From positions 1 through 28,423 of the IMG/VR virus record IMGVR_UViG_2537562173_000011: a stretch of 28,423 nt of DNA; one strand, written 5' to 3'. Positions 22,406-27,412 of this stretch are shown here, one piece after another; the first letter of the stretch is position 1, and each line of letters begins with the position of its first letter. A model generated the notes under the pieces. That model saw only the letters and a list, made by a program, of their open reading frames with translations. It had not been told where the DNA came from and did no database searches. The position numbers and the translations under genes were made by a program. Origin of the DNA: a virus. Its lineage: Duplodnaviria; Heunggongvirae; Uroviricota; Caudoviricetes.

Positions 22406-22508
22406 TGTTGGCTCCGTTTATCCGTTAAAAGGGATATCAGTTAAGTTATCCCGTGTAGGGTATAAGCCATTGTCAAAGCCACTCTGTAGGGAATGGCTTT
22501 TGTAATAA

Positions 22509-22889
22509 CTACTGTTCGCTTAGCTTCTGCTTCAGCAAGTAACCTTCGAGCATCCAGATTTTGTTTACAGCATTCTGCCGGGCAATCTTCCGACCAATTT
22601 CTGCATCAAAGTTTTCCGGGCTTGCACAGGCACTCTCTCCGGTGACGGTGAAGCCATTCTTCAGCACCAGTACGCAGAAAGTGAGCAACTTCAATGGTGA
22701 TAAATCACGATCGCCTTCTTCTGGTTTTTCCCTGCCACAATATTCGTTGCTGGAAATGGCACCATTTCGTCCATCATAAGCAGTAAAGTAATGCTCGCTT
22801 TTAATCACGTCTTCGATGTGCTGCGGGGTGATTCGCGGTGCCGTTTTGCCTTTCTCAACGATTTCTTTTTCGATTTGCTGGTCGTTCAT
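22509..22889 (-). CDS. Hypothetical phage protein (126 aa)
   Basis: Clean ATG start, consistent codon usage; between rha and the packaging genes. No function recognised. Confidence 0.45.
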   Translation of the reverse strand: MNDQQIEKEIVEKGKTAPRITPQHIEDVIKSEHYFTAYDGRNGAISSNEYCGREKPEEGDRDLSPLKLLTFCVLVLKNGFTVTGESACASPENFDAEIGRKIARQNAVNKIWMLEGYLLKQKLSEQ

Positions 22890-23047
22890 AATTATGACCC
22901 TGTAGAGTGGTTGCTTGATTAGGATGTCTTTCCATCAGTCCGCCACCACAAAGAATCTTTTTTGCCATAAGGCAGGAGGTTCATCTTTCAGTGGCTGCCA
23001 GTGTTATTTCCCCACTTTCTGGCTTGGGTTGTTTCGCTGTACTGCCG

Positions 23048-24373: not shown

Positions 24374-24846
24374 ACCTCAATCTCTCTGCCCGTCCCGCCA
24401 GCCTCTTTGAATTTTGCAATCAGGTTGTCAGCCTTATGCTCGAACTGACCATAACCAGCGCCCGGCAGTGAAGCCCAGATATTGCTGCAACGGTCGATTG
24501 CCTGACGAATATCACCGCGGTCAATCATCGGTAAAGCGCCACGCTCTTTAATCTGCTGCAATGCCACAGCGTCCTGACTTTTCGGAGAGAAGTCTTTCAG
24601 ACCAAGCTGCTTACGGTAGGCATCCCACCAACGGGAAAGAAGCTGGTAGCGTCCGGCGGCTGTTGATTTGAGTTTTGGGTTTAGCGTGACAAGCTTGCGA
24701 GGGTGATCGGAGTAATCAGTAAATAGCTCTCCGCCTACAATGACGTCATAACCATGATTTCTGGTTTTCTGCCGTCCGTTATCAGTTCCCTCTGACCACG
24801 CCAGCATATCGAGGAACGCCTTACGTTGATTATTGATTTCCACCAT
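24370..24846 (-). CDS. R: Endolysin, lambda R-type lytic transglycosylase
   Basis: 158 aa, [53 protein letters not shown]... is near-identical to lambda R as recalled. Confidence 0.9.
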
Positions 24847-25082
24847 CTTCTACTCCGGCTTTTTTAGCAGCGAAGCGTTTGATAAGCGAACCAATCGAGT
24901 CAGTACCGATGTAGCCGATGAACACGCTCGTTATATAAGCGAGATTGCTACTTAGTCCGGCGAAGTCGAGAAGGTCACGAATGAACCAGGCGATAATGGC
25001 GCACATCGTTGCGTCGATTACTGTTTTTGTAAACGCACCGCCATTATATCTGCCGCGAAGGTACGCCATTGCAAACGCAAGG
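24830..25082 (-). pseudogene. S: Holin S (lambda type), lacking its native N-terminus and start codons
   Basis: From ...[45 protein letters not shown]... to the C-terminus the translation matches lambda S, but the first ~24 codons ([24 protein letters not shown]) are replaced by the foldback/homopolymer junction. Confidence 0.8.
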
Positions 25083-25139
25083 CATCGGGGCAATCCTTGC
25101 GTTTGCAATGGCGTACCTTCGCGGCAGATATAATGGCGG
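25038..25139. repeat. Perfect 45-bp inverted repeat (foldback) with 12-bp spacer
   Basis: Left arm 25038-25082 is the exact reverse complement of right arm 25095-25139; both are holin S codons ~22-40, once in each orientation. The plus-strand copy plus spacer reads [21 protein letters not shown]. Confidence 0.95.
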
Positions 25140-25167
25140 GGGGGGTGTAAAAAAAAAAAAAAAAAAA
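25138..25167. repeat. Homopolymer tract G8-TGT-A19
   Basis: Read directly: gggggggg tgt aaaaaaaaaaaaaaaaaaa, between the foldback repeat and the argE-derived sequence. Confidence 0.95.
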
Positions 25168-25170
25168 TCC

Positions 25171-26022
25171 CCGCCATTTATCGAGATTTACCGTGCTCTG
25201 ATTGCCACACCTTCAATAAGCGCCACGGAAGAGGCACTCGATCAAAGCAATGCAGATTTAATCACTCTGCTGGCGGACTGGTTTAAGGATTTAGGCTTCA
25301 ATGTGGAAGTACAGCCTGTGCCAGGAACTCGCAACAAATTTAATATGCTGGCCAGTTGCGGACAGGGGGCTGGCGGTTTGTTGCTGGCGGGGCATACCGA
25401 TACGGTGCCATTTGATGACGGACGCTGGACGCGCGATCCATTTACGTTGACGGAGCATGACGGCAAGCTTTACGGCTTAGGCACCGCCGACATGAAAGGC
25501 TTTTTTGCGTTTATCCTTGATGCGCTACGCGATGTCGACGTCACGAAGCTTGCAAAACCGCTCTACATTCTGGCGACTGCCGATGAAGAAACCAGTATGG
25601 CCGGAGCGCGTTATTTTGCCGAAACTACCGCCCTGCGCCCGGATTGCGCCATCATTGGCGAGCCAACGTCGCTGCAACCGGTACGCGCGCATAAAGGTCA
25701 TATCTCTAACGCCATCCGTATTCAGGGCCAGTCGGGCCACTCCAGCGATCCAGCACGCGGAGTTAACGCTATCGAACTGATGCACGACGCCATCGGGCAT
25801 ATTTTGCAATTGCGCGATAACCTGAAAGAACGTTATCACTACGACGCGTTTACCGTGCCATACCCTACGCTCAACCTCGGGCATATCCACGGCGGCGATG
25901 CATCTAACCGTATTTGCGCTTGTTGTGAGTTGCATATGGATATTCGTCCGCTGCCAGGCATGACACTCAATGAACTTAACGGTTTGCTCAACGATGCATT
26001 GGCTCCAGTGAGCGAACGCTGG
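25171..26022 (+). pseudogene. argE: Internal fragment of acetylornithine deacetylase gene argE (about codons 6-289), no start codon, truncated 3' end
   Basis: Translation [62 protein letters not shown]...SERW matches E. coli ArgE as recalled; homology is lost after SERW, followed by VGL-stop. Confidence 0.85.
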
Positions 26023-26059
26023 GTGGGCTTGTGATGGTTGCTGAATGCAAAAGCAGCAG

Positions 26060-26100
26060 CATATGTGAATATTATGGCTAAATGGCTAATTGCATGTCAA
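26060..26100 (-). promoter_or_regulatory. Candidate late promoter pR' (sigma70-like TTGACA-N18-CATAAT) overlapping the 3' end of Q
   Basis: Minus-strand TTGACAtgcaattagccatttagcCATAAT; directed toward the lysis genes, at the position where lambdoid phages place pR'. Confidence 0.35.
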
Positions 26101-27140: not shown

Positions 27141-27412
27141 TGGACAAACACCCTCCCATTGTTAACCAATTTTTTAAGGGTAAGCACAATGGCCCGATCC
27201 ATTTCAGCCCTTCGCTCTTCCCTGCTCATATCTCTCCCATTATCAATTCTTGAATGACAATCAACACATAGCGCAGCAGTAAGGCAATCATCTACTTTAA
27301 TCCCAACCCCCTTCCCTTCATTTCTGTGAGCGGCCTGAACTCCGTATCTTCCGCAAAGAACGCAAAATTCAATATCCCTGACTGCCTGAAGCCATTTTTT
27401 GCTTCTAAACAT
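27137..27412 (-). CDS. Cys-rich nin-region protein (YbcO/DUF1364-like)
   Basis: 91 aa from ATG 27412; cysteine pairs CVLCG ... CVDCH suggest a zinc-binding nuclease-like fold; sits upstream of rusA as in DLP12-type nin regions. Confidence 0.5.
   Translation of the reverse strand: MFRSKKWLQAVRDIEFCVLCGRYGVQAAHRNEGKGVGIKVDDCLTAALCVDCHSRIDNGRDMSREERRAEMDRAIVLTLKKLVNNGRVFVQ

Follow-up and report, generated by a model that had tools for sequence, protein, structure and literature searches.

Palindrome, homopolymers and argE fragment beside the holin gene of a CUS-3-like prophage in Escherichia coli clone A i1 as probable products of mis-closed assembly gaps

In this study, a 28,423-nt stretch of viral DNA (IMG/VR record IMGVR_UViG_2537562173_000011, hereafter the window) was analysed. 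The gene content of its minus strand (Rz, R and S, followed by Q, ninH and rus) marks it as a CUS-3-like prophage of the P22 family. Between the holin gene S and the antiterminator gene Q, the sequence folds back on itself, passes through runs of eight G and 19 A residues, and continues into a fragment of argE. We consider it highly probable (roughly 85%) that the foldback, the homopolymers and the argE fragment are products of sequencing and assembly, namely mis-closed gaps, and not bacterial DNA. The initial annotation had regarded the junction as either an artefact or a real hairpin-mediated scar, with no choice made between the two; the source of the contig, a miscall signature within the homopolymers and the occurrence of other lesions support the former and make a real scar the less likely of the two. 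The features of the S-Q region are as follows (window coordinates).

24830 to 25082, minus strand: 3′ part of the lambda-family holin gene S, approximately codons 25-107, with 100% identity to ST95 prophages, UTI89 included, as far as 25082
25038 to 25082: left arm of the 45-bp inverted repeat, native holin S sequence
25083 to 25094: 12-nt spacer between the arms, native holin sequence in inverted orientation
25095 to 25139, plus strand: right arm, repeating holin codons ~25-39 in inverted, S-sense orientation
25140 to 25170, plus strand: corrupted native argE leader of 31 nt (Shine-Dalgarno sequence, ATG and first five codons), in-register match 19/31
25171 to 26022, plus strand: 852-nt fragment of the acetylornithine deacetylase gene argE (codons 6-289), with 100% identity to the ST95 gene
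26022 to 26077, minus strand: phage DNA just downstream of Q, with the right half of a tR′-like hairpin and a short transcribed leader
26071 to 26100, minus strand: predicted pR′-like late promoter (TTGACA-18-CATAAT, 11/12), retained, with an equivalent site in the intact relative L006
26078 to 26596, minus strand: antiterminator gene Q, intact (Pfam Phage_antitermQ)

The perfect inverted repeat consists of 25038-25082 and 25095-25139, and the next base on either side breaks the match. With the spacer included, the inverted holin segment is 62 nt long in full (25078-25139) and is the reverse complement of CUS-3 S, corresponding to positions 2100 to 2039 of the CUS-3 locus (L001) at 100% identity. 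Comparison with CUS-3 and UTI89 placed the strand turn at a native 5-bp inverted repeat in S, CAAGG-N12-CCTTG. The homopolymers follow in the order G8 (25138-25145), TGT, A19 (25149-25167) and TCC. The 45-bp perfect inverted duplication and the two homopolymers described initially were therefore all present where they had been placed. The arms had been assigned to S codons ~22-40; the holin origin was correct, and the codons are ~25-39, or ~19-39 with the spacer. G8 and A19 were the sole homopolymers of at least 8 nt in the 28.4-kb window, and the 45-bp arms were its sole inverted repeat of at least 18 nt. Folded as single-stranded DNA, the palindrome region gave −65.5 kcal/mol, compared with −22.9 ± 3.1 kcal/mol for shuffled sequences (z = −13.6), and none of 200 shuffles was as stable, which is far beyond chance.

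The S fragment is colinear with CUS-3 (CP000711) and with the UTI89 prophage up to 25082. It matched Pfam Phage_holin_3_1 (PF05106) at profile positions 22-99 of 99 only; the full-length match with dual Met1/Met3 starts was not found in the window S. By comparison with CUS-3 and UTI89, the deposited S lacks its initial 71 nt and with them Met1 and Met3, in agreement with the earlier statement that both S start codons had been removed. The accompanying statement that S had been separated from its late promoter did not hold, since the predicted pR′-like promoter at 26100-26071 is kept on the same strand as S and ~1 kb upstream of it, the distance in intact relatives being ~1.3 kb. What has been lost between promoter and S is the intervening DNA and half of the tR′-like hairpin. 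A tR′-like terminator was not called in the terminator scan of the window, and a predicted terminator was called in the intact relative L006 at 3008-2988. The near-consensus promoter overlaps the end of Q and the hairpin terminator lies ~50-60 nt further on (window 26071-26100, L006 2988-3008); going by consensus scans only, the two look like a very short pR′-tR′ unit for this type of Q.

Intact relatives carry, in order, Q, the pR′-like promoter, a short hairpin terminator, an HNH endonuclease gene and the same S, with an S-Q interval of ~1.2 kb. Colinearity of the window with CUS-3 and UTI89 resumes at 26071, and with E. coli 317, APEC20/16 and AH19B041 already at 26021/26022; from 26022 on, the window is contiguous at 99.5% identity with E. 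coli 317 and others. Relative to APEC20/16, the window has 939 bp of other sequence in place of 1,220 bp. The missing DNA covers the initial 71 nt of S and ~500 nt lying upstream of that gene, together with the HNH gene and the terminator hairpin's left half. The HNH gene, situated between the Q terminator and S (L006 2350-2862, L007 2349-2861), is absent from the window and also from CUS-3 and UTI89. Because CUS-3 and UTI89 are without this gene that other relatives carry, the S-Q interval can be considered a mosaic hot spot. Searches of 5,426 complete E. coli genomes, phage records, IMG/VR and JGI metagenomes yielded none of the junctions of the window; at least 120 viral contigs carry native holin sequence at the site of the turn. 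Comparison with CUS-3-like prophages, which had been proposed as a check on the palindrome, thus showed S to be colinear to 25082 and the palindrome junction to be absent from relatives, supporting the interpretation as an artefact.

The argE copy, which had not been reported previously, stands between the truncated S and Q, directly after the A run. No mismatches were observed over its 852 nt when compared with ST95 strains such as UTI89. A complete 383-codon argE with its own start is not present; only codons 6-289 remain, and the ATG reads AAA. Pfam domains Peptidase_M20 and M20_dimer were detected in the fragment, with M20 covering profile positions 1-113 of 206. The right argE/phage junction is nearly blunt, with a 1-nt overlap, and falls inside the loop of the tR′-like hairpin. 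In GenBank the ORF bearing the fragment is named acetylornithine deacetylase of E. coli cloneA_i1 (EHG00362.1). When the argE locus was compared with the S-Q interval native to an intact relative, no shared k-mer of at least 12 nt was found, and simple de Bruijn repeat confusion was therefore rejected as the reason for recruitment of argE.

The chimeric 321-aa ORF was found on 1 contig only in the whole gene index, AEYT01000031.1 (assembly GCA_000233675.2), the sequence of which is identical to the window. This contig belongs to the 2011 draft of E. coli 'clone A i1', which was built from Illumina GA IIx paired-end reads only. Use of the GA IIx for strain i1, a paired-end insert of 300-700 bp and a mate-pair range of 1.5-4.5 kb in the same study are documented (PMC3203180). 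The 9 kb of chromosomal backbone upstream on this contig were 99.98% identical to UTI89, with no indels.

In-register and lag tests showed that the homopolymers, to which no origin had been assigned before, are a corrupted copy of the argE leader. Positions 25140-25170, containing most of G8 together with TGT, A19 and TCC, matched the native argE leader CAGAGGTGTGTCAACAATGAAAAACAAATTA in register at 19/31 positions, a score equalled by 7 of 94,010 background 31-mers (p = 7e-5). All 12 substitutions are identical to the reference base located 1-3 positions earlier in the read direction of the minus strand (seven at lag 1, four at lag 2 and one at lag 3), with 7.0 expected (P = 6e-4). In the plus read direction, no lag enrichment was observed (6/12 versus 5.7 expected, P = 0.54). 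The first minus-strand error falls on the base right after ...AAATGGCGG, which holds GGCGG with a GGC motif, and the 45-bp palindrome adjoins. Reads from the Genome Analyzer (GA) are known to contain strand-specific runs of miscalls after GGC motifs and inverted repeats, in which the wrong bases match the preceding reference; these errors were ascribed to lagging dephasing and hinder de novo assembly (Nakamura et al. 2011, PMC3141275). The homopolymers are read as miscalls because the in-register leader, the lag pattern and the start at GGC match this published signature. The likeness extends to platform, strand specificity, a GGC start beside an inverted repeat, persistence over ~30-40 nt and miscalls at lags 1-3 (12/12), the difference being that the published errors were seen in mapped reads whereas those described here are fixed in a deposited consensus.

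Since the adjoining 852 nt of argE contain no mismatch, 12 changes in 31 nt do not represent natural divergence. The string G8-TGT-A19-TCC is most likely the argE ribosome-binding site, ATG and five codons as they appeared in dephased reads, and not DNA that existed in the cell. Such errors should enter a consensus only where no better reads were used. Here the error version from one strand stands in the consensus, joined to a perfect arm, and therefore no accurately read molecule supports the adjacency of arm and leader. The in-register, lag-direction test is thus a simple way of spotting fossilised GA dephasing errors in old drafts for which reads are not at hand.

Two other origins of the homopolymers were considered. 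The continuation of the inverted holin copy matched the same 31 nt in register at 14/31 (p = 0.018); a consensus of two overlapping ends was rejected, as the window has A at three positions where both templates agree on a base other than A. Adapter read-through followed by poly-A was also discarded, no convincing adapter being seen before the A run on inspection by eye.

Whole-window comparison with UTI89 revealed two further lesions.

15279 to 15358: chimeric patch in gp10, 80 nt in place of 97 native nt, unique to the draft
19050/19051: blunt 331-bp deletion in the portal gene, unique to the draft

A 47-nt segment of the chromosomal gene zwf comes first in the gp10 patch, followed by 5 nt in which two A/C errors occur and by a 27-nt exact copy of 17938-17964, which lies in the scaffold gene on the same strand, 2,606 bp away; all joints of the patch are blunt. 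It splits gp10, the product of which functions in packaged-DNA stabilisation, into ORFs of 74 and 376 aa, the latter deposited as EHG00347.1. The 331 bp missing from the portal gene were present in all of the best-matching complete genomes, and their deletion splits the gene into ORFs of 419 and 249 aa. The flanks of both lesions were ~100% identical to UTI89, and mosaic boundaries were for this reason rejected as the cause of contig breaks at gp10 and portal. A spread search of window positions 1-25000 for other chromosomal patches yielded only zwf. The 419-aa N-terminal portal fragment was found on two Logan contigs, both of which end there after continuing 2-3 nt into native sequence; the look-up selects for contigs ending at that place, and the idea that the portal deletion is common to other assemblies was accordingly given no weight. 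As the 27-mer adjoins the point where gp10 resumes, the patch has the geometry of a circularised fragment, with 2,606 bp falling within the 1.5-4.5 kb range. A mate-pair circularisation junction could conceivably be its source; however, only paired-end data are mentioned for i1 (PMC3203180), and the foldback would be left unexplained.

On the basis of these observations, the S-Q interval was probably an assembly gap that was closed with wrong sequence. We infer the presence of this gap, and the exact order of the assembler steps, from the pattern of the lesions. On the S side, the sequence would fold back at the 5-bp inverted repeat, either through a snap-back chimeric library fragment or through a tail-to-tail join of ends. 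The fill on the Q side would run across 852 nt of argE, by greedy extension into an unrelated gene. Both fills would meet, among low-quality read tails, in the 31-nt argE leader as miscalled by dephased minus-strand reads. Dephasing would turn GAGGTGTGTCAACAATGAAAAACAAATTA into the G run, TGT, the A run and TCC, the wrong bases repeating ones read 1-3 cycles before, and minus-strand reads of the native argE would be expected to carry the same ...GGCGGGGATTTTT... miscalls at low quality.

The replacements are gap-sized, in keeping with gap closure: 80 nt for 97 nt in gp10 and 939 nt for ~1,220 nt between S and Q. As in misjoined assemblies, the junctions occur in this assembly only and are accompanied by other chimeras and collapses, namely the gp10 patch and the portal deletion. 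Read-based gap closers tested on E. coli added 10-19 local misassemblies per ~100 gaps closed (PMC4091766, Table 3). The draft resembles the misassemblies of GapCloser, GapFiller and IMAGE described in that study in having several gap-sized local replacements and a collapsed 331-bp gap, all unique to it; membership in this class is judged from the pattern, the i1 paper naming no assembler or gap closer. Snap-back chimeric fragments are a known library artefact arising at short reverse-complementary regions during end repair (PMC8458033). The foldback is like them in that segments of opposite strands from one locus are joined at 5-nt CAAGG/CCTTG sequences 12 nt apart, and unlike them in that those fragments came mainly from heat-damaged FFPE DNA whereas the DNA here was from a bacterial culture. 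Tail-to-tail joining of ends by the assembler could account for this anatomy just as well. Mispriming during PCR-based gap closure was rejected, the phage sequence at the right junction matching argE poorly at the primer 3′ end and the left 'primer' being misdirected.

Several points count against mis-closed gaps. The 852 nt of single-copy argE, together with the clean, near-blunt right junction, exceed what one stray read could supply, so that greedy extension or misplacement of a whole contig would have to be assumed for argE, and no k-mer of at least 12 nt links argE to the S-Q interval. The gp10 and portal genes are single-copy in most relatives, and gaps are therefore unexpected there. 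Furthermore, all three lesions disable essential late functions, and real prophage decay would look alike.

The alternative that survives best, although we regard it as unlikely, is a real complex rearrangement in strain i1, in which the DNA between Q and S broke, or a fork stalled there, and template switching or end joining carried out the repair. The strand would have folded back at CAAGG/CCTTG, ~880 nt of argE would have been copied from 1.8 Mb away, and rejoining would have taken place in the tR′ loop, with deletion of ~1.2 kb that included the S start and the HNH gene. Miscalls would then be confined to the 31 nt beside the palindrome and would reflect the poor performance of the GA on palindromes and GGC motifs. 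Both breakpoints are indeed hairpin-capable (the 5-bp inverted repeat in S and the terminator loop), the 852 nt of argE are copied without a mismatch and end cleanly on the right, and a true duplication, being a repeat, would explain why the assembler broke argE exactly there. The HNH endonuclease gene that intact relatives have in the deleted interval is a possible source of the break, and the two other inactivating late-gene lesions fit a decaying prophage. However, at ~100-fold coverage of both strands, error-free plus-strand reads and reads of the native locus would have given the correct leader, yet in the assembly a perfect arm adjoins the leader with its minus-strand errors. The gp10 patch, with its zwf segment, phage 27-mer, blunt joints and A/C errors, also has no known simple in vivo mechanism in E. 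coli, and nothing similar was observed in 5,426 complete genomes.

E. coli is not known to have classical nonhomologous end joining, and the relevant in vivo comparators are quasi-palindrome template switching, MMBIR/FoSTeS and alternative end joining. The S-Q region resembles such events in its strand switch at a short inverted repeat, the insertion from a distant locus, the near or complete lack of microhomology at the second junction and the net deletion; the short inverted microhomology of 5 nt (CAAGG/CCTTG) is located at the strand switch itself. It differs in that real events copy faithfully, whereas here 12 of the 31 bases next to the junction are wrong in a sequencer-specific pattern, and in that the 80 nt of the gp10 patch combine sequence from two unrelated sources. 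Independent confirmation of a rearrangement was sought in complete genomes, IMG/VR, the gene index and JGI metagenomes, and none was obtained.

Chimeric library molecules could by themselves have been followed faithfully by the assembler, a snap-back S fragment having been ligated to an argE fragment. The foldback anatomy is that of described artefact fragments (PMC8458033), and the blunt junctions resemble ligation products; yet the insert of 300-700 bp (PMC3203180) is too short to span both the foldback and the Q-side junction with 852 nt of argE between them, and two independent chimeras at the same loci in consistent order are very unlikely. As an assembler step would still be needed, this explanation, to which we give very little credence on its own, is a sub-case of gap mis-closure and no true alternative. 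Hardly credible is RNA-templated insertion by reverse transcription of polyadenylated S mRNA and argE mRNA with template jumps and A19 as the poly(A) tail: S-sense sequence in the right arm does precede the A run and argE-sense sequence, but the A run aligns in register with the leader of argE, itself A-rich, and shows the dephasing signature, so that no untemplated tail is needed, and no reverse transcriptase was evident among the window ORFs.

With mis-closed gaps as the preferred explanation, the palindrome and argE feature most likely have no biological significance, and they serve as a warning on data quality. The mis-built stretch is present in public databases as two proteins, the 321-aa 'acetylornithine deacetylase' EHG00362.1, the N-terminus of which derives from holin-derived and miscalled sequence, and EHG00347.1, a truncated gp10. 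Surveys of prophages could misread the locus as a moron, a lysis-defective prophage or the capture of a host gene. It is improbable, and more so than a real rearrangement between S and Q, that the lesions as a whole are genuine, that is, that the CUS-3-like prophage of a single ST95 clinical isolate suffered breaks in several late genes, which were then patched using templated filler (argE, zwf and scaffold gene), a foldback included. Lesions that were genuine in this way would provide one of few documented instances of multi-template patch repair in a prophage, resembling chromoanasynthesis in a bacterium without classical end joining, and the break could start from the HNH endonuclease encoded by relatives between Q and S.

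Other observations were made in the window. A fortuitous 115-aa ORF on the minus strand (24830-25177) starts in antisense argE and stays in frame through T19 (read as FFFFF) and the palindrome until it enters S; this ORF is a misassembly artefact, and no called gene on record corresponds to it. Tandem repeats of 7 nt at 2044-2148, detected as self matches shifted by 7 nt in the comparison with UTI89, lie at the 5′ end of an acyltransferase gene beside the integrase gene. We take these repeats to be the phase-variable heptanucleotide tract of the CUS-3 O-acetyltransferase NeuO; the acyltransferase copy is an intact 251-aa ORF and is unique to this contig. A NUMOD4/HNH_3 endonuclease gene at 27141-27896 (ORF 27405-27914) in the nin region replaces the DUF1364 and antirepressor genes of UTI89 and is an ordinary mosaic difference. 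A segment of ~440 bp (22485-22922) that is absent from UTI89 contains an ORF (22509-22889) for a 126-aa protein of the Phage_gp49_66 family.
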